From: Betaproteobacteria bacterium
GTDB lineage: Bacteria; Pseudomonadota; Gammaproteobacteria; Burkholderiales; SG8-41
Assembly (NCBI GenBank): GCA_016199545.1
Contig: JACQGN010000114.1
Location: 1 to 54,023, forward strand
Reading direction: 5' to 3'
DNA: 54,023 nt
Every line of letters begins with the position of its first letter. The stretch's first letter is position 1. Shown one piece after another: positions 6,442-50,899 of this stretch. The notes under the pieces were generated by a model that saw nothing but the letters and a program-made list of their open reading frames with translations, did no database searches and was not told the origin of the DNA. Made by a program: the position numbers and the translations under genes.

Positions 6442-6833
6442 GAGGCATCACGTTTCCACTTCTCTTCGAATTCCTTTGCTTTTCTTAACTGAAATTTGGT
6501 TGCCTTTTTTTTGAAAAAGAGAAAATAGCAAAGTAAAAACAGGGCAAGGAATCCCAGAAGAAACAGACCAGCCGCGTCCCACTTATAGTTGTTTGCCCCC
6601 AACCATTGAAGCACAAAGCCCACGATGAGTAATGCGGTGCCGGTTATTCCGTCCGTTCTTGTCTCAATTCCCGCTTCAAGCACACCTGCGTTCCCGCCGT
6701 AGAACGTTTGGCTATTAAGAAAAAATGCTGATATTTTCGTGGAAAAAAACGCGTAGCCCAAAATTGATACGCCAATCCCATCATAAACGAGACCAACTGA
6801 ATTCAGATCAAGCAAGTTGTTCATATTGAACAC
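6438..6833 (-). CDS. Small integral membrane protein (131 aa, about 3 TM, basic/acidic C-terminal tail)
   Basis: The hydrophobic segments are GLVYDGIGVSILGYAFF, GITGTALLIVGFVLQWLG and AAGLFLLGFLALFLLCYFLFF, followed by KKKATKFQLRKAKEFEEKWKRD. GC is about 40% by eye. Confidence 0.6.
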   Translation of the reverse strand: MFNMNNLLDLNSVGLVYDGIGVSILGYAFFSTKISAFFLNSQTFYGGNAGVLEAGIETRTDGITGTALLIVGFVLQWLGANNYKWDAAGLFLLGFLALFLLCYFLFFKKKATKFQLRKAKEFEEKWKRDAS

Positions 6834-6881
6834 TAACGTTCCCGATGATGCGCTGCGGAGCAGTCACAATCGACCGGGCGG

Positions 6882-7151
6882 TTAGGTGCTGGATCGCGCC
6901 ACCAGTGGGAACTTCTCGGGGTGGCGGATGGATTCGACGGCCAGATCCACATCAAGGTCGGGCCAGTAGAGATGATGCGGTTGAGGACGCTCGACATTCG
7001 TGAGCTTGGCGATCGGAGCGTCCTTGAACCAGGGAAACGCCGAAAAAGGCACAAACAACTCCTCGGTCCCCAGCATCAGCCAGAAACCGTGAGTCGAGAC
7101 GTTCGTGACCTCAACTTCCGAAGTGCTTGCGCCAGGCAGCACGGATGTCAT
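6882..7151 (-). CDS. DUF2442 domain protein (putative antitoxin-like partner)
   Basis: ...VEVTNVSTHGFWLMLGTEELFVPFSAFPWFKDA... matches the DUF2442 pattern. It is paired with and overlaps the upstream DUF4160 gene. Confidence 0.75.
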   Translation of the reverse strand: MTSVLPGASTSEVEVTNVSTHGFWLMLGTEELFVPFSAFPWFKDAPIAKLTNVERPQPHHLYWPDLDVDLAVESIRHPEKFPLVARSST

Positions 7152-7368
7152 TTTCGTGTCTCCGGATCAACCCTTCCGCCGCCCGAATCTGGCGGTCGTT
7201 CAGGCCGTAATTCTGCGCCAGTTCGATCAAGGGCTCAAGCCAGAACTTCGCTTCCCCGTCCGCGTGATACACGTGCACGTGGAGCCGGGACTCCTCGCGC
7301 GAGAAGAAAAAGAAGCGAAATCCATCCTCGCGAAAGATCGTCGGGCTCACGAGATGTTCGTCCAGCAC
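7111..7368 (-). CDS. DUF4160 domain protein (putative toxin-like partner)
   Basis: ...FRFFFFSREESRLHVHVYHADGEAKFWLEP... is the DUF4160 signature (H-x-H followed by AKFWL). Confidence 0.75.
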   Translation of the reverse strand: MLDEHLVSPTIFREDGFRFFFFSREESRLHVHVYHADGEAKFWLEPLIELAQNYGLNDRQIRAAEGLIRRHENDIRAAWRKHFGS

Positions 7369-7387
7369 CTAACGCCTGTTACGCGCT

Positions 7388-7729
7388 CTAAGGCAGATCG
7401 TATCTCACTGCGACGGCGGCGCTGGCGATCACTGCCATATCATGGTTGCCTTCGGCGGGCACGTCCAATCCGCCCTTGACGAGTTTTACCGTGACCTTTC
7501 CATGCGGCAGGCTGGCTTTGACCTTCGCGGCATCGACCTGGTCCGGGCGCTGCACGCCGATCGTAACCTCAACTTGCGTTGCTCTCGAATCGAGGCCGAG
7601 CGAGCGTAGCCAGCTCATGGACGAGTGATGCAGCGCATCCTCGACCGCGCGCAGCGCGGCCTTGGTGTAGTCGGCACCGTGCAGATCGTTGCCGGCGCCC
7701 ATTTCCAGTATGACTCGTTTCAGTGGCAT
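7388..7729 (-). CDS. Lin0512-family protein (function unknown), paralog 1
   Basis: MPLKRVILEMGAGNDLHGADYTKAALRAVEDAL... resembles the Lin0512 family N-terminus (xxEMGMGxDxHGxDxTKAAxRAVxDA). Confidence 0.7.
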   Translation of the reverse strand: MPLKRVILEMGAGNDLHGADYTKAALRAVEDALHHSSMSWLRSLGLDSRATQVEVTIGVQRPDQVDAAKVKASLPHGKVTVKLVKGGLDVPAEGNHDMAVIASAAVAVRYDLP

Positions 7730-7741
7730 CGCGCTGCTCCT

Positions 7742-8080
7742 CTACACATCAAGGCGGACGACGGCCGCTGCGTGCGCGAGCACGGTCGAGCCGGTGCCGG
7801 CGTCGTTCGGAATTTCCAGGCCGCCTTCGACCACCTTCACCGTTCCAGTACCATGCGGCAGCACCGCAAGCACCTCGTCCTTGTTGACCCGTTCGGGTTT
7901 CGGAACGCCGATCAGGACTTCCACGACCATGGAGTCGGTTGGCTTTCCCAGCGCCGCGGCGACATTGAGCGAGTTGTGCCAGAGCGCGTCACGCAACGCC
8001 CGCACCGCGGCCTTGGTGTAATCGGCGCCGCGTATGTCCGTGCCCATGCCGATCTCCGTCACCATGCGTTTCATGGTCAT
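7742..8080 (-). CDS. Lin0512-family protein (function unknown), paralog 2
   Basis: MTMKRMVTEIGMGTDIRGADYTKAAVRALRDAL... has the same pattern. The start is ATG 8080, preceded by AGGAGG. The longer 311-aa ORF is an R/P-rich extension that overlaps the divergent gene. Confidence 0.7.
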   Translation of the reverse strand: MTMKRMVTEIGMGTDIRGADYTKAAVRALRDALWHNSLNVAAALGKPTDSMVVEVLIGVPKPERVNKDEVLAVLPHGTGTVKVVEGGLEIPNDAGTGSTVLAHAAAVVRLDV

Positions 8081-8258
8081 AGCCGTTTCCTCCTGTGATC
8101 TGCGATCCTGATGTCTGACCGACATGTTACTCCGGCCTGAACGCAACGTGTATGGCTCGACCGTGGAGTGGCGTCGCCCTGCCGGGTGTTTCATGCACGG
8201 ACGCTGATAGAATCCCCGTATCGGAGCGGAACGCAGGACCGGGGAAACAGGGGAAACA

Positions 8259-8720
8259 ATGACCAGGGAGAAGAAACCGGGCAAACCGCTGCGCGACACC
8301 ATGGCGAACCGGATGCGCCGTGCGCGCAGCGTATTTGCCGCGGGTGCGCCCAGCGCAATGGGGGTGAAGCCGATCAGCCTTACGCCGCAGAAGGTGACCG
8401 CGGCGATGCGCGTGCGGCCGATGCACCTCAATCGCAACGATGTGGTCAACGGCGGAATCATCATGGCTTTCGCGGACGTATTGGGCGCCGCGGGGGCGGT
8501 GCTGAACCGGCCGCTCCAGAGCCGCGGCGGTACGCTCGAATCGAAGACCAACTTCTTTGCGCCGGGGCGCGGGCCGAAGCTCATCGCCGAATCGGTGCCG
8601 CTGCACGTCGGCCGCACGACCTCGGTGTGGCAGACCACCGTCAGGAACGCCGATGGCCGGATGGTGGCGATCGTCACGCAAACGCAGATGTCGCTGCCCC
8701 GCCATTCGGACGGGGCGTGA
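8259..8720 (+). CDS. PaaI-family (hotdog fold) thioesterase
   Basis: ...LNRNDVVNGGIIMAFADVLGAAGA...ESKTNFFAP...HVGRTTSVWQTTV... is the typical PaaI/4HBT pattern. GGGGAA lies upstream of the ATG. Confidence 0.8.
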   Translation: MTREKKPGKPLRDTMANRMRRARSVFAAGAPSAMGVKPISLTPQKVTAAMRVRPMHLNRNDVVNGGIIMAFADVLGAAGAVLNRPLQSRGGTLESKTNFFAPGRGPKLIAESVPLHVGRTTSVWQTTVRNADGRMVAIVTQTQMSLPRHSDGA

Positions 8721-37460: not shown

Positions 37461-39851
37461 GTGTGGGTGAGCGTCGTATTCTTCGCCGGCGGAGTCTGGT
37501 TGCTGCAACAGCAGGCGCAACTCCCCGCCATGACGCTCGCGTGCAGTCTGGCAACAGCCGGGGCCCTGATCCTGCTGCGCGGCGAACATGCGGCAATGCG
37601 CGTTAGCCGATGGGTGCTCACCTGCGCGTTGTGCCTGGGTGCGGGTTTTTTCTGGGCGGCGGCTGCCGCCCACTGGCGCATGTCGGATGCGCTGCCCGCG
37701 GAGTGGGAGGGACGGGACGTGATCCTCATCGGCACCGTCGCGAGCCTGCCGCAAGTCTACGAGCGCAGCGTGCGGTTCGAATTCGACGTCGAAACGGTGC
37801 TCACCGAAGGCGCGCACGTGCCACGCCGCGTCGTGCTCGCGTGGTGGGGCAGTTCCGCGCGCGAAGGCGCCCCGCCCACGCTCGCTGACGTGCGGGCCGG
37901 CGAGCGCTGGCAGCTGGCGGCGCGCTTTCGGCGGCCGCGCGGCACCGCCAATCCGCACGGCTTCGACTACGAGGCGTGGCTGCTCGAACGCGAGATACGG
38001 GCGACGGGTTACGTGCGCGGCAAAGGCGCGAACCGCAGACTCGCGGGGATGGTGCACCGGCCGGGCTACTGGGTGGAGGCGGCACGCGGCGCACTCAGGC
38101 AACGGATACAGCGGGCGTTGCCGGACGGGCCGTACGCAGGTGTGGTGGTCGCGCTCGGCATCGGGGACCAGCGCGCCATTGCGCAGGATCAATGGCAGGT
38201 CTTCACGCGCACCGGCGTCAATCACCTGATGAGCATTTCCGGTCTGCACGTGACGATGCTTTCCGGGCTGGCGTTTGTGCTGGCCTACTGGCTGTGGCGC
38301 CGGAGCGCGCGGCTCACGTTGTGGCTGCCGGCGCAAAAAGCAGCGGCGTTGTGCGGTGTCGCGGCGGCGTTCGCCTACACATTGCTTGCGGGCTTCGCCG
38401 TGCCCGCGCAGCGGACGCTTTACATGCTGGTGGTGGCGGCGGTCTTTCTCTGGTGTGGCATCACGGGTTCGGTGTCGACGATCCTGGCGGCGGCGCTCCT
38501 CGTTGTTCTGGTGCTCGACCCGTGGGCGGTACTGGCGCCGGGGTTCTGGCTTTCATTCAGCGCGGTGGCGGTGATCCTGTATGTGACCGTCGGCCGGATC
38601 GGCGACTCGCACTGGCTCAAATCGTGGCTCCACGTGCAATGGGCGGTGACGGTAGGGCTGGTACCGCTCCTCCTCGCGCTGTTCCAGCAAGTCTCGATCA
38701 TCTCGCCGCTGGCGAACGCGGTGGCGATTCCGGTCGTGAGCCTCATCGTAGTGCCGCTGACGCTCGCCGGCATGCTGCTGCCGTTCGATCTTGTCCTGGG
38801 CGCAGCACACCTGGTCATGGCGGGGTGCGGGTCGTTGCTCGAATGGATGAGCGCCGTGCCCGCCGCCGTCTGGCAACAGCGCGCGCCACCCGCATGGTCA
38901 ATGCCAGTTGCCGTAGGCGGCGTCGCCTGGCTGCTGCTGCCGCGGGGTTTTCCCGCGCGCTGGCTTGGCGTGGTCTGCCTGTTGCCGCTGTTTCTCGCGC
39001 CGCGGTCTGAACTGGCGGAGGGTGACTTCAAGCTGACCGTGCTGGACGTGGGGCAGGGACTTGCAGTCGTCGCGCAAACGCGCCATCACGCGCTTCTCTA
39101 CGACACCGGACCGGCCTTCGGTCCGGGGGCGGACAGCGGCAACCGCATCGTGGTGCCGTTCCTGCGTGCCTCTGGCATCGCGCGCCTTGACACCATGATC
39201 GTCAGTCATGACGACGTGGATCATACCGGGGGCGCACTGTCGGTGCTGCAGGCGCTGCCGGTGGCGAGGCTGCTCACGTCGCTGCCCGACATGGACCCCC
39301 TGTCGCTGATGGCGGAGCAGGCATTTCGATGCTTTGCCGAACAGCACTGGGAATGGGACGGAGTTCAGTTCGAAATGCTCCACCCGCCGCGCGCGAGTTA
39401 CGCCGAAACGGGACTCAAGGATAACGACCGGAGCTGCGTGATCAAGATCACCGCGAAGGGCGGCGCGGCGCTGCTGCCGGCGGACATCGAGCGGCGCGGG
39501 GAAACGGCGCTGTTGCGCGGGCACGGTGACGCGTTGCGCGTGCCGGTGCTGATTGCGCCGCACCAAGGCAGCAAGACCTCATCGATGGCGAGGTTCGTGG
39601 ACCGCGTCAATCCGGATGTGGTGATTTTCCCGGTGGGCTACCGTAACCGCTTCGGCCATCCGCATGAGGAAGTGGTCGACCGCTATCGCGCGATCGGCAG
39701 CCGCATCTATCGCACCGACCGCGACGGCGCCATTACGCTTGACTTCAGCGCTGCGGCTGTTATCCGCGTCGAGCCTTATCGCGCCACTTATCGGCGCTAC
39801 TGGCAGACGCCGCTCGTCGGCGACCCGGTCCCGGATCCGGAGGAGTTATGA
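37461..39851 (+). CDS. comEC: DNA internalization-related competence protein ComEC/Rec2
   Basis: It has an N-terminal DUF4131-like region, a multi-TM competence domain, and a C-terminal metallo-beta-lactamase domain (LTVLDVGQGLAVV...VSHDDVDHTGG). GTG 37461 is preceded by AGGAGG 8 nt upstream. Confidence 0.88.
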   Translation: MWVSVVFFAGGVWLLQQQAQLPAMTLACSLATAGALILLRGEHAAMRVSRWVLTCALCLGAGFFWAAAAAHWRMSDALPAEWEGRDVILIGTVASLPQVYERSVRFEFDVETVLTEGAHVPRRVVLAWWGSSAREGAPPTLADVRAGERWQLAARFRRPRGTANPHGFDYEAWLLEREIRATGYVRGKGANRRLAGMVHRPGYWVEAARGALRQRIQRALPDGPYAGVVVALGIGDQRAIAQDQWQVFTRTGVNHLMSISGLHVTMLSGLAFVLAYWLWRRSARLTLWLPAQKAAALCGVAAAFAYTLLAGFAVPAQRTLYMLVVAAVFLWCGITGSVSTILAAALLVVLVLDPWAVLAPGFWLSFSAVAVILYVTVGRIGDSHWLKSWLHVQWAVTVGLVPLLLALFQQVSIISPLANAVAIPVVSLIVVPLTLAGMLLPFDLVLGAAHLVMAGCGSLLEWMSAVPAAVWQQRAPPAWSMPVAVGGVAWLLLPRGFPARWLGVVCLLPLFLAPRSELAEGDFKLTVLDVGQGLAVVAQTRHHALLYDTGPAFGPGADSGNRIVVPFLRASGIARLDTMIVSHDDVDHTGGALSVLQALPVARLLTSLPDMDPLSLMAEQAFRCFAEQHWEWDGVQFEMLHPPRASYAETGLKDNDRSCVIKITAKGGAALLPADIERRGETALLRGHGDALRVPVLIAPHQGSKTSSMARFVDRVNPDVVIFPVGYRNRFGHPHEEVVDRYRAIGSRIYRTDRDGAITLDFSAAAVIRVEPYRATYRRYWQTPLVGDPVPDPEEL
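39791..39842 (+). repeat. 52-bp direct repeat, left copy (last codons of comEC)
   Basis: ATCGGCGCTACTGGCAGACGCCGCTCGTCGGCGACCCGGTCCCGGATCCGGA matches 43967-44018 at 51 of 52 positions. Confidence 0.9.
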
Positions 39852-40642
39852 GCATCGCAGCCTTTACGCGGCATTCCGTCTTCTGGATAAGCCAGGCGCG
39901 CAAGGAAGGTGTTGAGAATCAGCGTGTCCCGGTCTTCCACATGCTGCGCGACCGTTTGAATACCGAATGTCCGACATGCGCGAGTGAGTGAACGCAGCTT
40001 TGCGATAGATCCTATATTACCCATCAGGTTTTTGGTCAGGCCACCGCCGATTTTCATGAAATCCGCCGTGAAATCCTTCGCTGGCCGGAATGTTACGCCG
40101 CCTGGGTGGTCAACCCCGACTGCAATACTGCAGCCTGCCGCCTTGAGTCTCGTAGTGAACTCATGCGTAACCGGATCGGATGGTCCGTCAACGCTCGGGA
40201 TCTCAAAACAAAGACTGTCACCGCCGCAACCGGCGGTCTCTAATTCGGCGACAACGAGTGAAGGAAATTCCAGGTCGATCAAAGTTCCCCGGCAGAGATT
40301 GATATGCAGAATGAATCCGACCTCGCGCCTGTTGCTGCGATACCAGGCCAGAGCCCGCCGCAGCACATGCTGGTCGAGCGTCGGACCAAGCTTGTAGTGC
40401 TCAAGTCTCGGCAGGAAGGTTCCGGGCGGGACCACGTTTTGTTCTTCCTCTTTCAGCCGGACGTAAATCTCGGTGTGTGGACGGTTGTCGCCACCCGATC
40501 CCAATTTCTCGACCGGTTGGCTGTACAGCAGGAATTCGTTCTGCGCAAATGCCTGGGCAAACCTTTCCCGCGGATCTTCCCATTCAAGAAAGCCATTCGC
40601 TGTGCTGCCGACATAACCCTGCACGAAATCTCCGCCGTCCAT
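39797..40642 (-). CDS. Degenerate EAL-domain protein
   Basis: The EAL-fold pattern is recognisable (FLLYSQPV...TEIYVRL...PPGTFLP...HINLC...FEIPS...DFMKIGG...VAQHVED), but catalytic positions diverge (EAL to EIY, DDFG to VDHPG, K-x-D to K-x-G). The last 15 or so codons are antisense to the comEC tail. Confidence 0.6.
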   Translation of the reverse strand: MDGGDFVQGYVGSTANGFLEWEDPRERFAQAFAQNEFLLYSQPVEKLGSGGDNRPHTEIYVRLKEEEQNVVPPGTFLPRLEHYKLGPTLDQHVLRRALAWYRSNRREVGFILHINLCRGTLIDLEFPSLVVAELETAGCGGDSLCFEIPSVDGPSDPVTHEFTTRLKAAGCSIAVGVDHPGGVTFRPAKDFTADFMKIGGGLTKNLMGNIGSIAKLRSLTRACRTFGIQTVAQHVEDRDTLILNTFLARLAYPEDGMPRKGCDAHNSSGSGTGSPTSGVCQ

Positions 40643-40694
40643 GACCTGTGTCTCGCTGTTGTTCTCGCCGCCTCACGAAAATCCCGTGGCCGGC

Positions 40695-41006
40695 TCAGGC
40701 GGCATCGATGAGTTCCGGGGTGAGCGAGAGTATGGCCTGGTGGATGTGAAGCTGGAAACGCAGGAATTCCACAGCCGCATCGAGGGCATCGAAACACAGG
40801 GGCTCATTGTTCTCGTTGACAACGTAGTACACGTCCCACTCCGGATAGGCTGTTTGCTTCCCTATTGCGTAACCCATGCGATAGGGCCCGACACACCACA
40901 TCGTCGGGCTCACCAGCGCGATGTGTCTTGCCTTGTCCAGGGTCAGCATGTGCCGACCGCAGGAATTGACCGGCAGCTCGTTTAACCACACATTGGCTGT
41001 ATCCAT
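40695..41006 (-). CDS. Hypothetical protein (103 aa)
   Basis: An ORF in an operon position between the degenerate GGDEF and EAL genes. No family recognised. Confidence 0.45.
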   Translation of the reverse strand: MDTANVWLNELPVNSCGRHMLTLDKARHIALVSPTMWCVGPYRMGYAIGKQTAYPEWDVYYVVNENNEPLCFDALDAAVEFLRFQLHIHQAILSLTPELIDAA

Positions 41007-41054
41007 AGTTGCGACTCCGGATCATTGCGCCAGGTTGGGCAACTCGCGTAGCCG

Positions 41055-41666
41055 TCAACCGGCATCGATGCAGTTGCTGGCGCTGGCTTCAGCGTGGGAC
41101 AGCGCCGATTCGGCCCGTTGCATCAAGGCGCCGATGTCCTCGCCACGCCTAAACTCCGCCAGACCGATCGACGCGGTGACTTTGCACGGCCGGCTCAGAC
41201 CGCCTATTTCCAGCGATGCAATCCGGCGGCGCACGCGCTTCGCTGGAATGGACGCTCGGTCGAGACGGGTCTGGAGGAGAACGAAAACAAACTTTTCGTC
41301 ACCGTAACGGCCGACCGCGTCCACCCCGCGCAGTTCCACCGCGATCGCAGCGGCTACGTGGCGCAGCACATTGTCGCGCGTTGCGCGCCCGTGGAAGTCA
41401 TCGACCATGCCGAGGGAGTCGACATCGACGATGCCCACGCAAAACACGCCTTGCCCTGCATCGCTCCGCGCTTTTTCCTGCTCCAGCAACGCCACGAGAT
41501 GCCGCTGATCGTGGACTCCCGTGACCTCATCGAAAATCGGCCCGCGCCGGGTTTGCGCCAAGTTCTGCTGCGGATCGTGGTTGGGCCCGCACAACTTTTG
41601 CAGCAGGGCGCGGATGTAGTCGCCTACAACTGTGCGCGCTGCTGCGTGAGCGATGGCGGAGAACAT
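41055..41666 (-). CDS. Degenerate GGDEF-domain protein (GDEKF in place of GGDEF; RxxD retained)
   Basis: DEVTGVHDQRHL...VDVDSLGMVDDFHGRATRDNVL...RGVDAVGRYGDEKFVFVL...ASIGLAEF aligns to a GGDEF domain with a broken A-site and an RGVD motif 5 residues upstream. Confidence 0.7.
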   Translation of the reverse strand: MFSAIAHAAARTVVGDYIRALLQKLCGPNHDPQQNLAQTRRGPIFDEVTGVHDQRHLVALLEQEKARSDAGQGVFCVGIVDVDSLGMVDDFHGRATRDNVLRHVAAAIAVELRGVDAVGRYGDEKFVFVLLQTRLDRASIPAKRVRRRIASLEIGGLSRPCKVTASIGLAEFRRGEDIGALMQRAESALSHAEASASNCIDAG

Positions 41667-41709
41667 GCTTGGACCTCACATCGGTGCGGCGGTGCACCCC
41701 CGGATTTGC

Positions 41710-42861
41710 CTAGTTCCGCATGATGGCGTAGCCATCGGGCAGCGCGATCCCCCGGGGAGCGTCCGTGTTACCGAGGGCGCGCGCGCGGTCATTCGGCGCA
41801 GGGCAAGCGAGCCCCGGAGGCGAGTCCCTCCCCAAAGTTGCGCGGTAATCAAGCCCGCGCGGCGCGATGACAACCCGGTTGCGTCCGCCACCCTTGGCGA
41901 GGTACACCGCATGCTCGGCTTCCGACAAGAGATCCTCGGGGGTGTCGCCATGCTCGGGATAGGCAGCGACTCCGATCGAAACCGTTATCCGGCATACAAG
42001 ATCGGGGTTCGGCCGGAGTTCGAGCATTTCAACTCTCGCCCGCAGCTTCTCGGCGCGCGCCGCCACCACATCGGTCGCCGCATCGGGCATGACCAGGAGG
42101 AACTCCTCGCCTCCCAGCCGGCAGGCGATGTCTTCCTTGCGGATGCCGCCGGCGAGCAGCGCGCCCAACTCCCGCAGCGCCGCATCGCCCGCGTCATGCC
42201 CGTAGGTGTCATTGATGTGCTTGAAGTCATCGATGTCCAACGCGATCACTCCAAGCCGGGAACGACGCTGCACAGCACGACTCAACTCCCGCGCCAGTGC
42301 GTCGGTGAGGTGGCGACGGTCGTAGAGCCCGGTGAGCCGATCGCGCGGCGCCAGCACGCCCAGTTCAAGTTGCGCCATCACCTGGGCCGCGAGGAACTGC
42401 AGCGCCTCGCGCTGCTCGTCGGTCAACTTCCGCCGCACATAGTCGATCACCGACACCGAGCCCAACACATGCCCGTCGGGCGCCACGATTGGCGCTCCGG
42501 CGTAGAAACGAACATGCGGCGCGCCCGCCACCCACGGGTGCCGCTCGAAGCGCGGATCGCGGCTCGCGTCCCGCACCTCGAACACCTTGCCTCGGCGCAT
42601 GGCGTAATCGAAGAACGCGTGCGAGCGAGGCGCCTCGGACACCGTGAAGCCCAGCGCCGACTTGAAGAATACGCGCGTTTCATCGACCAGGCCCACCAGC
42701 GCGACCGGCGTGGCGCAGAAGCGGGAGGCGAGCAGCGTAATGTCGTCGAACCGCCGTTCGTATCCGGTCTCCAGCGCGTAGTAGCCCCGCAGCGTCGCCA
42801 GCCGCTCGGCTTCTTCCTTGCTTGGGAGCACTCTTACTCCCGCCTCAGTGATTGACTCCAT
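41710..42861 (-). CDS. GAF-domain diguanylate cyclase (intact GGEEF and RxxD I-site)
   Basis: The GAF-like region (...ALVGLVDETRVFFKSALG...FYAGAPIVAPDGHVLGSVSVID) is followed by DRLTGLYDRRHL...DIDDFKHINDTYGHDAGD...RKEDIACRLGGEEFLLV. ATG 42861 is preceded by GGAGG; an alternative GTG start is at 42987. Confidence 0.85.
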   Translation of the reverse strand: MESITEAGVRVLPSKEEAERLATLRGYYALETGYERRFDDITLLASRFCATPVALVGLVDETRVFFKSALGFTVSEAPRSHAFFDYAMRRGKVFEVRDASRDPRFERHPWVAGAPHVRFYAGAPIVAPDGHVLGSVSVIDYVRRKLTDEQREALQFLAAQVMAQLELGVLAPRDRLTGLYDRRHLTDALARELSRAVQRRSRLGVIALDIDDFKHINDTYGHDAGDAALRELGALLAGGIRKEDIACRLGGEEFLLVMPDAATDVVAARAEKLRARVEMLELRPNPDLVCRITVSIGVAAYPEHGDTPEDLLSEAEHAVYLAKGGGRNRVVIAPRGLDYRATLGRDSPPGLACPAPNDRARALGNTDAPRGIALPDGYAIMRN

Positions 42862-42989
42862 TGATGCCTCCAACGTCAGTTGATCGAGCCCAGCACACGA
42901 CGCCCCCGGATTGAAGCTGTTGCCGTTGTCCACGTTGTCGGGACTTCCGTTGCCGGTCCTGCGTTTATTCCGTTTAGCGGGCGCCACAC

Positions 42990-43325
42990 CTAAATGAAAG
43001 ACGCCAGCGCCCTGACGCGGTCGAGGAACGCATCATCGATCGACGCCAGATCCTCGGGCAGATCGGGCCCGGTTTCATACAGGTGCCGGTCGCAGGCCGT
43101 CGTGTGCAGCCCACCAACAATCGCTGACTCGGTGCGCGGCGGTTCCGCGCTGTCGCTCGGCAGTGCCGCAACTTGCGCCGCTTTCGCATGACTGAATTCA
43201 TCCTGGTAGGTCACGATCGCACTCTCCAATTGGTTGATCCGTACCAAGCACGTGCAGATTTCATGCCAGGCGCCTTGGAGGAACGGCGTGGAAAGATAAC
43301 TTGAGTGCAACGATCTGATCCACAA
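42990..43325 (-). CDS. Hypothetical protein (111 aa, or 75 aa from GTG 43214)
   Basis: The ORF ends 3 nt before the extended start of the cyclase gene. The internal GTG 43214 has GGAGAG 7 nt upstream. No family recognised. Confidence 0.35.
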   Translation of the reverse strand: MWIRSLHSSYLSTPFLQGAWHEICTCLVRINQLESAIVTYQDEFSHAKAAQVAALPSDSAEPPRTESAIVGGLHTTACDRHLYETGPDLPEDLASIDDAFLDRVRALASFI

Positions 43326-43603
43326 GGATTTGAAGAGGAGCGGTGTGACCGTGCGCTGCGTACCGTATTCCTGAATTTGCGTCGAGAACTTGACGATCGC
43401 TAGAGATGCCGGCGACTGCCCAGCGTTTTTTCGATATTACCCCTGCAAGAACCGTGAACTTTGTCACTGCACACGTCCGTGGGTACGCTGGCTGATCCAA
43501 GACAAAGCACGGCACATGGCCGCGCATCAAGAGTGCTTCACCGACTACTACCAGTTTGCCGAGGGCTTGTTTGACGCGGCCGAGAAGGACACGCACAGAC
43601 AGC

Positions 43604-43786
43604 TCAACCGGCGAGCGGTGCCGCCAGAATCGTGGTGAAAACGGTCAGATCGAACACCATACGCCATGCGATAGATGCTCTTTCGCCCGCATATCCGCCA
43701 TGACGCGCCATTGCACGGACGCCGGAGAGGAACGAAATGATCACGCCCATTGTGCCTACAAAGGTGAGAAGAGCGAATGTGTTCAT
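43604..43786 (-). CDS. Twin-transmembrane-helix small protein (HIG1-like)
   Basis: 60 aa, MNTFALLTFVGTMGVIISFLSGVRAMARHGGYAGERASIAWRMVFDLTVFTTILAAPLAG: two TM helices around a basic loop, resembling the HIG_1_N / twin-TM small protein pattern. Confidence 0.45.
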   Translation of the reverse strand: MNTFALLTFVGTMGVIISFLSGVRAMARHGGYAGERASIAWRMVFDLTVFTTILAAPLAG

Positions 43787-43966
43787 GGCTGCCTCGATTC
43801 CTGTCTGTTGATGGCCACACTGTAGCGGGCCGGAATGCCCAGGTCTGTCAGGAGATCACGACAAGTTCCCATGCTGATACAGGGAATCCATGATTGCGTC
43901 GTGCCTCGAAACAGTGCGCGAGGGTGACCGATGTGGAAATCGGGATGGCCGCGAACGCTATGGAGC

Positions 43967-44018
43967 ATCGGCGCTACTGGCAGACGCCGCTCGTCGGCGA
44001 CCCGGTCCCGGACCCGGA
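43967..44018 (+). repeat. 52-bp direct repeat, right copy (orphan duplicate of the comEC 3-prime end)
   Basis: ATCGGCGCTACTGGCAGACGCCGCTCGTCGGCGACCCGGTCCCGGACCCGGA would encode ...RRYWQTPLVGDPVPDPEAL-stop but has no comEC-like sequence upstream. Confidence 0.9.
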
Positions 44019-44091
44019 AGCGCTCTGACCGTACTCGCGATCGTGGTAAGCGATTTCGAGCGCGTTGAGTTCCAACCGGGGCGGCGCGGTC

Positions 44092-47000
44092 TCATCCCGC
44101 TGGCCACGGCTGATAGAGCAGATCCAGCGTCAGCGGGAAATCGGGATTGGGCGGTTCGGGGCGCACCGTCATGGGCCCCGGCGTGTGGCCATGGTCCCAG
44201 AAGCGCGCGGTGCGCCGTGCCTCGGCTTCGCCGGCATTGACCGGGTAGGCATCGTAGTTGCGTCCGCCGGGGTGCGAGACGTGGTAAGTGCAGCCGCCGA
44301 TCGAGCGCCCGCTCCAGGTATCCACGATGTCGAACACGAGCGGCGTGTGTATGCCGATCGTCGGATGCAACGCCGACGGCGGATGCCAGGCGCGGTAGCG
44401 CACGCCGGCGACGGACTCACCGGGTATTCCGGTGGGATGAAGCGGCAGCGCGCGGCCGTTGCAGGCGACGACATGGCGCGGGGCGGTGAGCCCGGTGACT
44501 CTCACCTGCAGGCGCTCCACCGAGGAATCGACGTAGCGGGCGGTCGCGCCGGCACTCACGTCTTCTCCGAGGACGTTCCAAGGCTCGAGCGCGTGGCGCA
44601 GTTCAAGCTGCGTGTTGTCGTAGACCACCGTGCCATAGCGCGGGAAGCGGAATTCAATGAAAGGCGCAAACCAGCGGGAATCGAACGAATAGCCGGCGCG
44701 CTGCATGTCCAGCGCGATATCGTGCATGTCGGCCGCGACGAAGTGGGGCAGCATGAAGCGGTCGTGAAGCTGCGTACCCCAGCGGATGAGCGCGCCCGAG
44801 TACGGCGTCCTGCAGAAGCGGGCCACCAAGCCGCGCAGCAGCAGCATATGCACGAGGCTCATCTGCGGATGCGGCTGCATCTCGATGGCGCGGAGTTCAA
44901 GCAGCCCCAGCCGCCCGGTCGGGGCGTCCGGCGAGTGGAGTTTGTCGATGCAGAACTCGGCGCGATGGGTGTTGCCGGTGAGATCGACCAGCAGATTGCG
45001 CAACATGCGATCCACCAGCGACGGCGCCACCGATCCGTCTCCAGCGTTCTGCTCCAGTTTCATCTGCTGGAACGCGATCTCGAGTTCGTAGAGCGAATCG
45101 TGACGCGCTTCGTCGACGCGCGGCGCCTGGCTGGTAGGGCCGATGAACCGGCCCGCGAACAGGTACGACAGGGCGGGGTGGTTCTGCCAGTAGGCGATCA
45201 GGCTCTGCAACAGGTCGGGGCGCCGCAACAGTGGACTGTCCACTGGTGTCGGCCCGCCGAGCGTCGCATGGTTGCCGCCGCCGGTGCCGGTGTGGTGTCC
45301 ATCGAGCATGAATTTCTCGGTGGTGAGGCGCGTGGCCCGCGCGTCCTCGTGCAGGGCGAGCGTGTTCCCGACCAGTTCGTTCCAGCCCGCCGCAGGGTGG
45401 ATATTGACTTCGATCACACCGGGGTCCGGCGTGACGTTCAGAACCCTGATGCGGGTATCGAACGGCGGCGGATAGCCTTCCAGCCGCACGGGGCGGGCGA
45501 GTGCGGCGGCGACGCGCTCGACCGCGGCTACCAGAGCGATGAAGTCCTCGGTGCGCAACAAAGGTGGGAGAAATACGTGGACACGTCCGTGCCGCACTTC
45601 CACAGTGAACGCGGTGCGCACCACGGCGCGGCCCGGTTCGGACTGCAATTCGCCCGGCAAGCGGGCGGGCAGCGAATCGAGCGGGAGACGATTGCCGATC
45701 GAAGCATCACCCGGTATCAGAAAGAGACATGTGCGCCGCAAGGGCCACGGGGACGTCTCCCACGTTTCTGGAGATCCCGGTTGTTCCGCTGCGCGGCGCG
45801 GACGCAGCGGGAGCACGATTCCCGCAACCTGTGCGGGTGCGCCTTCGAGCCTGCCGAGAATTCGCGTTCGGTCGGATTCCGGCGCACTCGACGCGTGTGC
45901 CGGATCCGCATCAATCGGAAGCCGTCCTTCTGCCTCCAGCAGCGGGAGCGGATCCTCAAAGGCCTCGATGAGGGATTCGTGAGTCAAGCCCAGTGCATCG
46001 GCAATGCCTCGCGCCACGCGCCACGCATCATCGAGAGTGGCATTGGCCGCAGATGACTCACTTGCGATCAGACCGGGGTCGCGCCATAGGGGCTCGCCGT
46101 CCACGCGCCAATACACTCCGATCGCCCAGCGCGGCACCGGCTCGCCCGGATACCACTTGCCCTGGCCATAGAACACCATGCCGCCGGGCGCGAAGCGCGC
46201 CCGCAGGCGCCATGCAAGCTGCTCGGCGAGTTCCCATTTGTGCTGGCCGAGTGCGGCCGTATTCCACTGCGGATCTTCGCGTTTGTCGATCGCGACGAAA
46301 GTGGGCTCGCCCCCCTGCGTAAGACGCACGTCGCCCGCCGCAAGCTCAGTGTCGATGTCCCGGCCCAGGCGGTCGATCGCGCTCCACTGGTCGTCGCCGT
46401 AGGGCCGGGTGGTCCGGGGATCTTCATGGATACGCATCACCGACGCAGAGAACTCGAACGTCGTCTCGCACGGCTCGACCGCGCCGGTAACCGGCGCGGC
46501 CGCCGCGGGGGAGGGTGTGCACGCAAGCGGGATATGTCCCTCGGCGCAGAACAGGCCCGAGGTGGGGTCGAGTCCGACCCAACCGGCACCGGGGAGGTAG
46601 ACCTCGGCCCAGGCGTGCAGATCCGCAAAGTCGCGCTCCGAGCCCGCGGGACCGTCGAGCGGCTTCACATCCGGCTTGAGCTGAATCAGGTAGCCGGAGA
46701 CAAAACGTGAGGCAAATCCCAGATGGCGCAGGATCTGCACCAGGAGCCACGCGCTGTCGCGGCACGATCCGCTCGCGCGCTGCAGCGTTTCCTCGCAATC
46801 CTGGACGCCGGGTTCCATGCGCACGACGTATCGCACGTCACGACTCAGGCCGCGGACGAGATTGACCAGGAACTCGACCGTGCCGGTTGTCGCTCCCTCG
46901 CGGCGCACGGATGCGATCCACGCGGTGAGCCGCTGGCCGCGTTCCGCAAGGTCAAGGAACGGCACGAGATCCCGCGCGAGTTCGCCGCGGTAGGCAATCG

Positions 47001-47307
47001 GATAGCGCTCGGCGTCATTTTCGACGAAGAAATCGAAGGGGTTGATGACGCGCATATCGGCAATGAGGTCGACCGTGATCTCCAGTGCTCCGGCCTTCTC
47101 CGGAAAGACGAAGCGCGCGACGTGATTGCCGAAGACGTCCTGCTGCCAGTGGACGAAATGCCGATCAGGCGCGATATTGAGCGAATAGCCGAGTATCGGG
47201 GTGCGGCAATGCGGCGCAGGGCGCAGGCGGATCTGGTGCGGCGACAGGATGACCTGCTTGTCGTAACGGTAGCGGGTCTGGTGGTGCAGTGCGACCTGGA
47301 TACTCAT
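44092..47307 (-). CDS. Transglutaminase-family protein with DUF2126-type C-terminal region (1071 aa)
   Basis: It has Bact_transglu_N (MSIQVALHHQTRYRYD...) and a transglutaminase core with catalytic Cys (SGSCRDSAWLLVQILRHLGFASRFVSGY), then a long conserved C-terminal region. The start is ATG 47307. Confidence 0.9.
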   Translation of the reverse strand: MSIQVALHHQTRYRYDKQVILSPHQIRLRPAPHCRTPILGYSLNIAPDRHFVHWQQDVFGNHVARFVFPEKAGALEITVDLIADMRVINPFDFFVENDAERYPIAYRGELARDLVPFLDLAERGQRLTAWIASVRREGATTGTVEFLVNLVRGLSRDVRYVVRMEPGVQDCEETLQRASGSCRDSAWLLVQILRHLGFASRFVSGYLIQLKPDVKPLDGPAGSERDFADLHAWAEVYLPGAGWVGLDPTSGLFCAEGHIPLACTPSPAAAAPVTGAVEPCETTFEFSASVMRIHEDPRTTRPYGDDQWSAIDRLGRDIDTELAAGDVRLTQGGEPTFVAIDKREDPQWNTAALGQHKWELAEQLAWRLRARFAPGGMVFYGQGKWYPGEPVPRWAIGVYWRVDGEPLWRDPGLIASESSAANATLDDAWRVARGIADALGLTHESLIEAFEDPLPLLEAEGRLPIDADPAHASSAPESDRTRILGRLEGAPAQVAGIVLPLRPRRAAEQPGSPETWETSPWPLRRTCLFLIPGDASIGNRLPLDSLPARLPGELQSEPGRAVVRTAFTVEVRHGRVHVFLPPLLRTEDFIALVAAVERVAAALARPVRLEGYPPPFDTRIRVLNVTPDPGVIEVNIHPAAGWNELVGNTLALHEDARATRLTTEKFMLDGHHTGTGGGNHATLGGPTPVDSPLLRRPDLLQSLIAYWQNHPALSYLFAGRFIGPTSQAPRVDEARHDSLYELEIAFQQMKLEQNAGDGSVAPSLVDRMLRNLLVDLTGNTHRAEFCIDKLHSPDAPTGRLGLLELRAIEMQPHPQMSLVHMLLLRGLVARFCRTPYSGALIRWGTQLHDRFMLPHFVAADMHDIALDMQRAGYSFDSRWFAPFIEFRFPRYGTVVYDNTQLELRHALEPWNVLGEDVSAGATARYVDSSVERLQVRVTGLTAPRHVVACNGRALPLHPTGIPGESVAGVRYRAWHPPSALHPTIGIHTPLVFDIVDTWSGRSIGGCTYHVSHPGGRNYDAYPVNAGEAEARRTARFWDHGHTPGPMTVRPEPPNPDFPLTLDLLYQPWPAG

Positions 47308-47341
47308 GGCGTCCCACTCACCGGAGCCGCGCGGTGATGGA

Positions 47342-48082
47342 CTACGCGCCCACGGTCCAGTCGGGATTCGGGATGCCGGCAAACACCTTGCGCAGGCCGT
47401 TGCCCCATTGCTGGTGGATCATTGTGAAGTAAGGATCGTCTTCTTCGACGCGCCTTTGCATGCCGATCCTGAAGCTGTCGCGCACGTAAACCAGCAGGTC
47501 GATAGGCAGTCCCACCGAAATATTGCTGCGCATGGTCGAATCGAACGACACCAGTATGCACTTCGTCGCATCGAGTATTTCGGTATTGCACTTGATCACC
47601 CGGTCGATGACCGGCTTGCCGTACTTGCTCTCGCCGATCTGAAAGTAGGGCGTGTCGCGGGTGGCTTCGATGAAATTGCCCTCGTTGTAGATGTGGAACA
47701 GCCGCTGGCGCTCGCCCCGGATCTGCCCGCCAACCAGCAGTGTTGCGCTTGCGTCGACGTTGCTCTGCTCGAGATACGGTCCGTCGCGCCGCTTGACTTC
47801 GCGCAGCGTTTCACCCACCCGTTCTGCGACCTCGATCATCGAGGCGACGTTCATGACGGTCTTCTTGGCGTCGGGGTTGCGCGACTGGTGGTCGAGAATG
47901 TTGACCACGTTCTGGGTGATCGAAAGGTTACCGGAGGAAAGAATGATGATGACCCGCTCGCCCTCGGTGGCGAAGATTCTCATCTTGCGAAAACTCGAGA
48001 CGTGATCGACGCCGGCGGAGGTTCGCGAATCCGAAGCGAACACCATTCCCACGTCCAGAACCGCGGCTACGCAATAAGTCAT
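47342..48082 (-). CDS. Proteasome-type protease (Anbu, ancestral beta-subunit family)
   Basis: MTYCVAAVLDVGMVFASDSRTSAGVDHVSSFRKM... has an N-terminal Thr directly after Met, the Ntn-hydrolase beta-subunit pattern characteristic of Anbu. Confidence 0.88.
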   Translation of the reverse strand: MTYCVAAVLDVGMVFASDSRTSAGVDHVSSFRKMRIFATEGERVIIILSSGNLSITQNVVNILDHQSRNPDAKKTVMNVASMIEVAERVGETLREVKRRDGPYLEQSNVDASATLLVGGQIRGERQRLFHIYNEGNFIEATRDTPYFQIGESKYGKPVIDRVIKCNTEILDATKCILVSFDSTMRSNISVGLPIDLLVYVRDSFRIGMQRRVEEDDPYFTMIHQQWGNGLRKVFAGIPNPDWTVGA

Positions 48083-48145: not shown

Positions 48146-49153
48146 TCAGCGGGAGGCCTGCGTCATGCCCGCGCGGCCGGGTTCCGGCGCGGTCACGTAC
48201 TCCGGAACCAGGAAATGCCGGTTGATCTCGCCGTTGAGCGCGTCCAGCTTCTCGATGAAGCTCATGAGGTATTCGTGCAGTCCCAGGCTGATGATCTGCT
48301 CGGTGCGGCCGTAATGCAGATGGGCGTGGATCTCGCCGGCCAGCCGCTCTGCTTCGCGCGACGACGGTTCGCAGATGTCGCGCAGGATGTCGTAGATCTC
48401 GTTCATGCAGGCGTGGAGCGACCGTGGCACGTCATCGCGCAGCACCAGCAGCTCGGCGACCCGCATTGGGGTCAGCACGTCGCGGTAGACCTTGCGATAG
48501 GCATCGAAGGCGCTTACGGAGCGCAGCAATGCGCTCCACTGGTAATAGTCGACCGCCCCGCCCACGTCCGTGACACTCGGCAGCAGCGTGTGATACTTGA
48601 CGTCGAGCAGCCGCGCCGTGTTGTCGGCGCGCTCGATGAAAGTCCCGAGACGGATGAAACTGTAGCCTTCGTCGCGCAGCGAGGTGCCGAAGGTGACGCC
48701 TCGAAACTGGTGCGAGCGCGTTTTGACCCAATCGAAGAACCCGCTCACCCCGCGCGCCTGCAAGCCGTCGAAATCCCGGTCGCGCAGCTCCAGCCAGAAC
48801 GCGTTGATGTCCTCGTACATCTCCGAGGTGATGGCCCCGCGGGCGGTGCGCGCGTTCTCGCGCGCGGACTGGATGCACGAGTAGATGCTGGAAGTGTTGG
48901 TGGCGTCGAGCACCATGTACCGCAGCACGTTCTCGGCGGACAACGGGCCCGGATAGCGTTCATAGTACGCCGTGGCGAGCCCGTTGATCACCAGCGGCAG
49001 CGCCCACGGCTCGGCCCACGACTGTCCCGGCTCGAGGATGCGGTAGGGCAGCAGCGACATGCGGTAGGTGACATCGAGCAGCCGCGCGGTATTCTCCGCG
49101 CGCTCGATGTGCCGCGACATCCAGTAGAGGTTGTTGGCGACCCGGCTTAACAT
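48146..49153 (-). CDS. Alpha-E domain protein (DUF403)
   Basis: MLSRVANNLYWMSRHIERAENTARLLDV... is the alpha-E N-terminal signature. Confidence 0.9.
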   Translation of the reverse strand: MLSRVANNLYWMSRHIERAENTARLLDVTYRMSLLPYRILEPGQSWAEPWALPLVINGLATAYYERYPGPLSAENVLRYMVLDATNTSSIYSCIQSARENARTARGAITSEMYEDINAFWLELRDRDFDGLQARGVSGFFDWVKTRSHQFRGVTFGTSLRDEGYSFIRLGTFIERADNTARLLDVKYHTLLPSVTDVGGAVDYYQWSALLRSVSAFDAYRKVYRDVLTPMRVAELLVLRDDVPRSLHACMNEIYDILRDICEPSSREAERLAGEIHAHLHYGRTEQIISLGLHEYLMSFIEKLDALNGEINRHFLVPEYVTAPEPGRAGMTQASR

Positions 49154-49158
49154 GGGGC

Positions 49159-49259
49159 AATGATGAATGCGGAATGATGAATGCGGAATACAGGCTCCGA
49201 CGAACGAGCGTGCATTGCAATACTATTCATCATTCAGCATTCCCAATTCATCATTCCTC
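49159..49259. repeat. Heptamer-array palindromic element (AATGATG/AATGCGG units), intergenic
   Basis: The left arm is AATGATG AATGCGG AATGATG AATGCGG AATA. After a 34-nt spacer, the right arm is ATTCATC ATTCAGC ATTCCCA ATTCATC ATTCCTC. The arms are imperfectly complementary (about 26 of 32). Confidence 0.85.
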
Positions 49260-50702
49260 TAGCACCCACGTATCCTTGGTTCCGCCGCCCTGGGACGAGT
49301 TGACGACGAGCGAACCCTCGCGCAGCGCAACGCGCGTGAGTCCTCCCGGCACCAGCGTCACCGACCTGCCGCTCAACACGTACGGCCGCAGGTCCACGTG
49401 ACGCGGGGCGATGCCCGAGCCGCAGAATGTCGGGCAGGTGGAAAGCGCCAGCGTCGGCTGAGCAATGAAGGAGGCGGGGTTTGCGACGATACGCTCGCGG
49501 TAGGCGGCGATCTCCTGCAGGGTTGCAGCGGGGCCCACCAGCATGCCGTAACCGCCCGATCCCTGCACCTCCTTGACCACCAGTTCGTGCAAATGTTCGA
49601 GCGTGTACTGGAGGTCGTCCGGAATCCCGAGGCGGTAGGTCGGAACATTGGAGAGGATCGGATTCTCGCCGAGATAAAACCGGATCATCTCCGGCACGTA
49701 GGTGTAGATCGACTTGTCGTCGGCGACGCCGGTGCCGATCGCGTTGGCAAGCGTGACGCTGCCGGTGCGGTAGGCGGAAAAGAGTCCCGGTACGCCCAGC
49801 ACCGAATCGGGCCGGAACGCGACCGGATCCAGAAAGTCGTCATCGATGCGCCGGTAGATCACATCCACGCGCTGCGGGCCGCGGGTCGTGCGCATGTAGA
49901 CGACGTCGTTCGCGACGAAGAGGTCCTGGCCTTCGACCAGTTCCACGCCCATCTGCTGCGCGAGGAAGGCATGCTCGAAATAGGCGCTGTTGTACGGACC
50001 CGGGGTCAGCACCGTGACCGCGGGATTCATGATGCCGGGCGGGGCGACCGCGCGCAGGTTGTCGAGGAGCACGTCGGGGTAGTGATCGACCGGCGCCACC
50101 GCCATGCGCGCGAACAGTTCCGGGACGAGCCGCATCATCATCCTGCGGTTTTCGAGCATGTAGGAGACGCCCGACGGCGTGCGCAGATTGTCTTCGAGCA
50201 CGTAGAACCGGTCGCGATCGGTCTGCACGATGTCGATGCCGGCGATGTGGATGTAGACGTCACCGGGAACGTCGAACCCGCACATTTCGCGGCGGTAGAG
50301 ATTGTTGTTGAGTATCGGTTCCGCCGGCACGCGCCCCGCCTTGATGATCTCTTGTGCGTGATAGACATCCCTGAGGAACGCGTTGAGGGCGCGCACCCGC
50401 TGGCGCGTGCCGTCGCAGATGGTCTTCCACGCGTCCGGGCGCAGGATGCGCGGGATTATGTCGAAGGGGATCGAGCGTTCGACGCCGCCTCCGTCGCCAT
50501 ACACCGCGAAGGTGATGCCAAGGCGGGTATACAAGGTATCCGCCTCGCGTTGCTTCTGCAGCATGTACTCGAGCGGCTTGTCCGTGAGCCATGCCGCATA
50601 GCGCTCGTAGTGGGGCCGCACCGACCCGTCAACGTCGTGCATCTCGTTGTAGATTTGGGACCGGGGAGGAGCGCTCTCAGGCTCAAGAGCCGATTTGTTC
50701 AT
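49251..50702 (-). CDS. Circularly permuted type-2 ATP-grasp protein (DUF404/DUF407)
   Basis: ...RPHYERYAAWL...LGITFAVYGD...ERSIPFDIIPRIL...YVLEDNLRTPSGVSYMLENR... is the typical pattern. It is the first gene of the Anbu operon. Confidence 0.9.
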   Translation of the reverse strand: MNKSALEPESAPPRSQIYNEMHDVDGSVRPHYERYAAWLTDKPLEYMLQKQREADTLYTRLGITFAVYGDGGGVERSIPFDIIPRILRPDAWKTICDGTRQRVRALNAFLRDVYHAQEIIKAGRVPAEPILNNNLYRREMCGFDVPGDVYIHIAGIDIVQTDRDRFYVLEDNLRTPSGVSYMLENRRMMMRLVPELFARMAVAPVDHYPDVLLDNLRAVAPPGIMNPAVTVLTPGPYNSAYFEHAFLAQQMGVELVEGQDLFVANDVVYMRTTRGPQRVDVIYRRIDDDFLDPVAFRPDSVLGVPGLFSAYRTGSVTLANAIGTGVADDKSIYTYVPEMIRFYLGENPILSNVPTYRLGIPDDLQYTLEHLHELVVKEVQGSGGYGMLVGPAATLQEIAAYRERIVANPASFIAQPTLALSTCPTFCGSGIAPRHVDLRPYVLSGRSVTLVPGGLTRVALREGSLVVNSSQGGGTKDTWVLEE

Positions 50703-50899
50703 CGTGCCCTCTGAAGCAACCGCCGTGCCATGGCCGCCTTTCGCGTGCAGCCATGTTCTGCCACCGGCTGCGATTTGTCAAAGTGCGTCAGTGCAGCACG
50801 GTCGGTCGTGCGCCATGGCACGCATTGCATTGCAGCGCACGGGGGCGATGTTGCACAATCGTGGTGCGTGCTCCTTATGAGCGCTTCCAAATATTCAAC

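Follow-up and report, generated by a model that had tools for sequence, protein, structure and literature searches.

The 54,023-nucleotide (nt) contig JACQGN010000114.1 of the Betaproteobacteria bacterium assembly GCA_016199545.1, analysed over its whole length and referred to here as the window, carries an island bounded by two copies of the 3' end of comEC, which encodes the competence protein ComEC/Rec2. This island almost certainly arose by a genuine insertion of 4.18 kb into the tail of comEC, the tail being duplicated in the process. The best explanation overall, to which we assign a probability of about 0.5, is a Campbell-type single reciprocal crossover inside the tail.

The two copies are direct repeats of 62 nt with a spacing of 4177 nt, and correspond to the last 62 nt of comEC. 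They are identical at 57 of 62 positions: positions 1-46 all match, and the five mismatches fall within the final 16 nt. An in-frame TGA closes both copies, the left one reading ...YRRYWQTPLVGDPVPDPEEL (the DPEEL end) and the right one ...DPEAL.

37461-39851, plus strand: comEC (ComEC/Rec2), 796 amino acids (aa) with the start annotated in public records; the open reading frame (ORF) is longest when begun at 37380
39790-39851, plus strand: T(L), the left 62-nt comEC tail, forming the functional comEC end ...YRRYWQTPLVGDPVPDPEEL*; identical in the window and in the relative L001
43967-44028, plus strand: T(R), the right orphan comEC tail, ...DPEAL*; the original chromosomal gene end, now drifting

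A reading of this DNA made from the sequence alone (the sequence-only reading) had described a 52-bp repeat with a single T/C difference and an abrupt end of similarity outside it. The identity at 51 of 52 positions and the T/C difference are both present, but the left coordinates had been placed one base too high: the true register pairs 39790 with 43967, and the difference lies at 39836 versus 44013. Similarity does end abruptly on the left, but on the right it runs on to the stop codon, giving the 62-nt repeat. The same reading regarded the right copy as an orphan, and this was confirmed, with the coding end of comEC left intact.

Neither chance nor an assembly artefact accounts for the repeat. 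The window has two occurrences of the identical 46-nt block, versus 0 expected from 100 shuffles, the 46-mer is unique to the repeat, and the structure is present in four further independent assemblies. These are L001, a metagenome-assembled genome (MAG; Betaproteobacteria bacterium RIFCSPLOWO2_02_64_14) that is a 97% relative, and the metagenome contigs L082/L083, L084, and L086 with L115, all of which hold the same island with both tail copies. Because both copies are shared by all of these, the island structure is real and fixed in this species-level clade. In the 90% cluster of ComEC proteins, 10/10 end in DPEEL, and the DPEAL end expected of a close empty-site allele was found in 0/10; no empty site was found among strains at least 97% identical. 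A dispersed repeat unrelated to comEC was also ruled out: the window holds two copies, and in the JGI metagenomes there are four matching stretches on three contigs, all at this locus. The search for other insertion contexts envisaged by the sequence-only reading, run with the 33-nt core of the repeat, found that core confined to this locus in the collections searched. Hallmarks of a transposon or insertion sequence were lacking, with no transposase in the island and no inverted repeats between its ends; a 62-nt duplication far exceeds the target duplications known for bacterial transposons. No tRNA was found in the window and Rfam gave no credible match, so that a tRNA or non-coding RNA target is not supported.

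The direction of the insertion is suggested by relatives in which the region downstream of comEC is differently arranged. In many of them comEC is followed by a convergent tag gene (DNA-3-methyladenine glycosylase I, ~190 aa), with a transglutaminase gene next in L008, L069 and L091; L091 has the older order, with comEC followed by an intact tag (191 aa) and the transglutaminase gene, both facing it. An empty site was identified in L090, a 1.7-kb JGI contig from a relative at ~88-90% nucleotide identity, which has a single tail, then a 23-codon tag remnant and then the transglutaminase gene. It aligns to window positions 39432-39851 and 43969-45300, and the 60-nt overlap of the two alignments is its one tail. 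Its junction between the tail and tag codon 23, TGA/CC.T.CTCGC.ATCGTGG, is nucleotide for nucleotide the junction at the right copy in the window. Because this junction is common to the empty site, the right copy, the tag remnant and the transglutaminase gene represent the older native state, and the insert is therefore the 3' part of the left copy through to the right arm. The last 16 nt of T(L), and all that lies to its right up to the orphan copy, would have come with the insert. The opposite assignment, with the right copy foreign and the left copy native, is ruled out by the same junction. The sequence-only reading had predicted an empty site with comEC followed directly by the transglutaminase gene; the single tail exists, in a relative at ~89%, but the 23-codon tag remnant stands between the two genes.

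In L001 the tag gene is split. Its degenerate C-terminus (L001 11792-11962, ~aa 141-188), ending ...VNAYIFMQAAGLVNDHLVGCFRYDELKDTQ* with an internal stop upstream, lies inside the left arm of the island, 27 nt past the comEC stop, which is the native distance. Codons 1-23 lie directly against the stop of the right tail copy and next to the transglutaminase gene. What the insert carried as spacer and tag 3' remnant is sequence that had already been deleted in the lineage of L090 and the window. Because the insert restored what this lineage had lost, the left arm of the island appears to be a piece of the comEC-downstream region of a related chromosome.

The distribution of differences between the tails indicates where the two alleles meet. 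A reconstruction based on the window and L001 gives two tails that, when the insertion occurred, differed at 0/46 positions and then at 4/16. Three of these four differences are synonymous (GAT/GAC, and TTA/CTC, which counts as two), and the fourth is GAG/GCG. The chance of such clustering for four random changes is p ~0.004, and on the simplest reading the tails would be two alleles joined by a crossover within the 46-nt identical block. The composition of the two copies is that of a Campbell-type event: the left consists of the shared 46 nt, the imported 16 nt and the imported flank, and the right of the shared 46 nt, the native 16 nt and the native flank. The orphan copy T(R) differs between the window and L001 at 3/62 positions. 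In the strain represented by L115 (2999-3061) and L086 (2461-2523), contigs from one ENA sample that overlap at 100%, the copies differ at 8/63 positions, and the functional tail has a private change of VG to AS (GTCGGC to GCCAGC) that the orphan copy lacks. Because the left copy of this strain has these two private changes, the copies are not being homogenised; continuous gene conversion keeping them alike is not supported, as the L115 and L086 copies diverge independently.

A further contig, L081 (1179 nt), comes from a separate JGI sample and matches the L001-type island at 99.3% identity. It extends from the 5' end of the GAF-GGDEF gene of the island across the right arm and a hybrid tail into the left arm, of which it covers the spacer and the first part of the tag remnant. 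At position 13 the hybrid tail carries the right-type C, and at position 47 the left-type T. Because the exact run shared by the two tails in this strain is only 33 nt, an assembler using k-mers longer than 33 would have needed real reads across the junction. A circular junction had been envisaged by the sequence-only reading, and a contig joining right end, tail and left end indeed exists; L081 probably represents either an excised circle or a tandem copy.

The cargo of the island is a cyclic-di-GMP signalling operon with a sigma54-type promoter, comprising a small ORF and genes for a GAF-GGDEF protein, a degenerate GGDEF protein, orf103 and an EAL protein. Its features, from left to right, are as follows.

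39852-39881, no strand: start of the left arm, the spacer found after comEC in the donor-type arrangement; aligns to L001 11754-11783
39882-39919, no strand: window-specific 38 nt in place of 274 nt of L001, with the tag remnant and the last ~45 EAL codons lost
39797-40642, minus strand: EAL-domain gene, 3'-truncated here, covering only positions 2-217 of 236 of the Pfam EAL profile
40695-41006, minus strand: orf103, a small protein of unassigned function with no Pfam, PHROGs or NCBIfam match
41055-41666, minus strand: 203-aa GGDEF protein with the degenerate active-site motif RYGDEKF, as read from the translation (Pfam GGDEF, E = 7e-23)
41710-42861, minus strand: GAF-GGDEF diguanylate cyclase with GGEEF motif and RxxD I-site (Pfam GAF and GGDEF; 383 aa in the public call)
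42990-43213, minus strand: small ORF of ~74 aa, the first gene of the operon; C-terminus DDAFLDRVRALASFI conserved in L087 and L088
43253-43268, minus strand: sigma54-type promoter, TGGCAT-N5-CTGCA, one of just two window matches versus 0.18 expected
43269-43966, no strand: right arm, AT-richer at ~56% GC, with no homology to any other fetched sequence
43604-43786, minus strand: orf60, a possible small membrane protein in the right arm, 94% conserved in L001 and L086, with no family match

The earlier description of the island genes as all lying on the minus strand holds for every credible gene in it. Its description of the island as lower in GC holds for the mean, which is 61.0% compared with 65-66% in the flanks and 63.8% over the whole window. 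However, the low GC is concentrated at the island ends (EAL, orf103 and the right arm, 56-57%), and the GAF-GGDEF gene is host-like at 66.8%, so that only the ends are clearly AT-richer. Homologs of the GAF-GGDEF protein span 96-59% identity, those at 59% being stand-alone chromosomal genes, and diverged small ORF-GAF-GGDEF-EAL clusters were found elsewhere at 75-80% nucleotide identity. In L087 the homologous operon directly follows a sigma54 activator gene and has the same promoter motif upstream; no remnant of a sigma54 activator was found in the right arm of the island. Homologs of orf103 were limited to 12 clusters at 66-90% identity, and the one source-named cluster among them is from a Betaproteobacteria MAG. 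A plasmid origin was considered and rejected: the best 10 of 39 plasmid-collection records match within the GAF-GGDEF gene, at 65-73% identity. Judged by its homologs, the cargo is ordinary chromosomal signalling DNA of this bacterial group and not mobile-element DNA.

The left end of the island differs between the window and L001. Positions 11784-12057 of L001 (274 nt) are represented in the window by the unrelated 38 nt at 39882-39919, which match no fetched sequence. The L001 EAL protein is complete, with 289 aa and a full Pfam EAL profile, and that of the window lacks the last ~45 residues, its truncated ORF continuing antisense across the comEC tail. Because the EAL 3' end and the tag remnant have been lost relative to L001, the window copy of the island is a decaying derivative. 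Within the EAL gene, positions 40215-40249 gave a sub-threshold Rfam match to CRISPR-DR20 (25.7 bits versus a gathering threshold of 42, E = 0.044), which is almost certainly due to chance, as it is a single copy with no array.

Profile searches with Pfam, PHROGs and NCBIfam identified no recombinase, transposase, excisionase, phage or transfer family in the island ORFs, and Pfam identified no recombinase in the larger ORFs predicted on the 54-kb contig. This bears out the sequence-only reading, which had seen no integrase, transposase or excisionase in or next to the island. No arm-type repeats flank the core. Integrase remnants at the island ends were excluded, as the extra 274 nt of L001 are tag remnant and EAL 3' end and the right arm matches nothing. 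A phage or prophage origin was also rejected: the unannotated island ORFs have no PHROGs match, the PHROGs matched by the GGDEF gene are all of unknown function, and no comEC tail is present in IMG/VR.

Searches beyond the window for users of the same site were equally negative. A second tail copy within 10 kb of comEC was present in 0/78 other loci with a comEC end, which showed only 12-18-nt chance matches. By a crude screen of relatives, none of the 209 ORFs lying up to 5 kb downstream of comEC has the tyrosine-recombinase box II motif. Pfam scans of 121 of these ORFs, drawn from about half of 79 relatives, revealed no recurrent integrase family (at least three members); the scanned ORFs contained only housekeeping families, for example relA/spoT, scpAB, thrS and infC. 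Neither the 33-nt core nor a degenerate comEC-tail pattern was found in IMG/VR, where 21 matches to a 20-nt degenerate pattern proved to be chance RRYWQTP strings in unrelated frames. No integrative and conjugative element (ICE) or integrative and mobilizable element (IME) using the comEC-tail site was detected in the comEC-downstream ORFs of relatives, the JGI metagenomes or IMG/VR. The sequence-only reading had interpreted the repeats as the attachment sites attL and attR of a site-specific integration. Of this, the insertion into the comEC 3' end, the duplicated tail and the intact coding end stand; site-specificity is unproven, given a left arm that is chromosomal flank, the lack of an integrase signal and the lack of arm-type repeats.

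We tentatively and slightly favour host homologous recombination as the agent of the exchange, because no recombinase is encoded in cis, the screens gave no sign of an integrase-bearing element using the site, the left arm is plain chromosomal flank and the exchange lies in the longest block of perfect identity. That block of 46 nt is compatible with RecA-dependent pairing, without proving it. Before the insertion the recipient would have carried the comEC tail, the tag remnant (codons 1-23) and the transglutaminase gene. The incoming DNA would have contained its own comEC-tail allele, a 27-nt spacer, the tag 3' remnant, the sigma54-driven cyclic-di-GMP operon and the AT-rich right arm. A single reciprocal crossover within the 46 identical nt would place the whole molecule in comEC, with the result that comEC would end with the imported 16 nt (...DPEEL*) and the old end (...DPEAL*) would be orphaned 4.2 kb downstream. 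Later recombination between the repeats could give the right-end/tail/left-end junction of L081. The sequences establish the insertion, the duplication, the empty site, the mosaic tails, the foreign remnants in the flank, the lack of recombinase genes in cis and the junction contig; we infer the circular intermediate, the enzyme involved, and the order and timing of events.

Several points weigh against a Campbell-type origin. A homology of 46-62 nt is near the lower limit for RecA-dependent exchange, so that such events would be rare, and a circular or permuted donor is needed, of which L081 could be a descendant rather than the source. The empty-site relative L090, at 89% identity, differs at 5 of the 46 positions where the donor tail had to match the recipient. 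The precise restoration of a gene 3' end by an element-borne copy is a classical hallmark of integrase islands, and a helper integrase may lie elsewhere in the genome, the search having covered one 54-kb contig. These last points lead to the serious and only slightly less likely alternative of a decayed or non-autonomous element resembling a cis-mobilizable element (CIME), inserted by a comEC-3'-end integrase acting in trans or encoded on a part since lost. The tails would then be attL and attR, and L081 an attP circle or an accretion or tandem junction. The repeats do overlap the 3' end of a conserved gene whose coding end is reconstituted by the element copy, an empty site exists (L090), and the L081 junction has a P-core-P' structure whose crossover falls within the 33 nt that are identical in that strain. 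The left-end difference between L001 and the window shows ongoing decay, and the structure fits the definition of CIMEs, which are described in one account of such elements as having kept attL and attR and lost the integration and transfer genes (PMC5704250). However, neither the island nor the 54-kb contig has an integrase, excisionase, conjugation or phage remnant, the core lacks arm-type repeats, and the left arm is merely a chromosomal spacer with a tag pseudogene. The 33-nt core was found in JGI metagenomes at this island alone and was absent from IMG/VR, and the screened relatives have neither a recurrent integrase family nor a second tail copy beside comEC.

A further alternative is an origin in place, with no circular intermediate. 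The tag fragments are complementary, with aa 1-23 on the right and ~aa 141-188 on the left in L001, and their position on either side of the cargo is what a simple insertion into tag would produce. On this route, which we regard as improbable, the cargo would have replaced tag codons 24 to ~140, an illegitimate tandem duplication of tail, spacer, tag remnant and cargo would have followed, and the second copy would have been removed up to the tail, for example via an imported tag-deleted allele. A recombinase is unnecessary, each step is a common bacterial rearrangement, and a tandem duplication would give exactly the junction seen in L081. At least three events are needed, however, with breakpoints that coincide with the comEC stop codon and with a point 62 nt before it, and no contig joins the cargo directly to the tag N-terminal remnant. 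A duplication older than the L090 split should also have given drift over the whole length of the orphan copy, but the differences are 0/46 versus 4/16, with no homogenisation. We give still less credence to an active mobile cassette without a recombinase, in which the 4.2-kb unit would alternate between the circle or tandem form of L081 and the chromosome through host recombination on a ~50-nt 'address tag', or through an unrecognised recombinase among orf103, orf60 and the 74-aa ORF. A one-sided, homology-facilitated illegitimate recombination or end-joining of a transformed linear fragment, anchored on the left in comEC and joined on the right at the start of the tail, is very improbable. 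The host does encode ComEC, and the inserted DNA begins with comEC homology and has a right end without homology to the target. However, the illegitimate joint would sit upstream of the homologous anchor, so that two chromosome copies would be needed, the L081 junction is not explained by the event itself, and one-sided homology-facilitated events normally lead to the loss of recipient DNA, not to its duplication.

The locus is an integrase-less, repeat-bounded genomic island of a known and fairly ordinary type at a new target. An example of CIMEs is provided by the elements flanking ICESt1/ICESt3 at the fda 3' end in Streptococcus thermophilus. Like CIMEs, the comEC island is short, has no integration or transfer genes and is bounded by direct repeats that include the 3' end of a conserved protein-coding gene, and internal att-like junctions are possible in tandem arrays. 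Unlike them, it has no cognate ICE or IME that we could find at its site and no decayed mobility genes, its repeat is long (62 nt) and holds a diverged second allele of the gene end, and its left arm was captured from a chromosomal flank; here the island sits in comEC of an uncultured betaproteobacterium. SGI1 at trmE is an integrase-bearing island that targets a housekeeping-gene 3' end and restores it (PMC8409611). The comEC island resembles SGI1-type islands in an insertion a few tens of bases from the stop, a coding end supplied by the element and an orphan copy left behind. It differs from them in that they carry their own genes for integrase, excisionase and mobilisation and are found repeatedly at one site in many genomes, features not seen here.

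Campbell-type integration of a non-replicating circle via cloned homology proceeds by a single crossover, and the aberrant-excision products lambda gal and bio carry host flank. As in these systems, the island has the homologous segment on both sides, its copies are reciprocal mosaics of donor and recipient, the insert carries target-adjacent DNA, and the event is reversible by recombination between the repeats. It differs from them in a homology of just 46-62 nt and in being a natural event. Competence genes are also known as prophage targets, for example in the Listeria comK prophage, where the gene is interrupted by means of a phage integrase. The target here is likewise a competence gene, but comEC stays intact and nothing in the island is phage-like.

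Together, this indicates that a regulatory operon can enter a conserved site, give a competence protein a changed C-terminus and leave behind att-like repeats, with no recombinase of its own. Such an island would escape finders that require an integrase, and repeat-based finders would call it site-specific without proof. The series of states is unusually complete, comprising the ancestral order (L091), the empty site (L090), the occupied site, the decaying window copy and the circle or tandem form (L081). The comEC 3' end is thereby added to the protein-gene insertion sites in Betaproteobacteria, which is not a new principle.

The genes on either side of the island belong to the host locus. 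The comEC product matches Pfam Competence, DUF4131 and Lactamase_B and NCBIfam TIGR00361 (342 bits versus a cutoff of 190), and an exact match to the 796-aa product is present in a public collection. To the right of the island lie the following.

44029-44096, minus strand: tag N-terminal remnant (DNA-3-methyladenine glycosylase I, ~aa 1-23), abutting the stop codon of T(R); frame checked
44092-47382, minus strand: transglutaminase-like/DUF2126 gene, the native right neighbour (Pfam DUF2126, Bact_transglu_N and Transglut_core)
49251-50702, 48146-49153, 47342-48082 and 44092-47382: CP-ATP-grasp, alpha-E, proteasome-like and DUF2126-transglutaminase genes of one operon

The tag N-terminal remnant has tblastn matches in L001, L083, L084, L086 and L090. 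The transglutaminase gene, the last of the CP-ATP-grasp/alpha-E/proteasome-like operon, is syntenic with comEC in L004, L008, L018, L021, L069, L090 and L091. The second of the two sigma54-type promoter matches, TGGCAC-N5-TTGCT at 50715-50730 on the minus strand, is located just upstream of the CP-ATP-grasp operon, and on the strength of these motifs the island operon and this neighbouring operon may both be sigma54-dependent.

The region following comEC is variable in other relatives. Only C-terminal tag fragments are left in L003 (6908-7066) and L014 (13896-14108), 1.1-1.5 kb from comEC, and the ORFs between comEC and these fragments include one of 293 aa and one of 461 aa, the latter resembling a membrane transporter. 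In this group, gene gain and tag decay seem to recur at the comEC-tag junction. An AT-rich motif resembling AAATATCAATAAAAACAAATACTTA lies in the first 30 nt past the comEC stop in L004, L005, L011, L012, L016, L019, L024, L035, L040, L041 and L043, and a second family of post-comEC motifs, resembling GGCAAAGCGTAACGACGTCAATGAGTTACC, occurs in L039, L044, L046, L047, L049, L051 and L052. The hosts of both are otherwise GC-rich relatives, and these conserved motifs could be promoters, binding sites or small RNAs.

The larger ORFs elsewhere in the 54-kb contig are housekeeping genes, for example lolCDE-like transporters, recJ, prfB, lysS and pha genes. Its lowest-GC stretch lies at 5400-7400, where 1-kb windows have 48-53% GC. 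This stretch holds two minus-strand ORFs without any family (5824-6441 and 6438-6833), adjoined by a DUF2442/DUF4160 pair (6882-7151 and 7111-7368) and by Lin0512_fam paralogues (7388-7729 and 7742-8677), and may be a second small acquired island.

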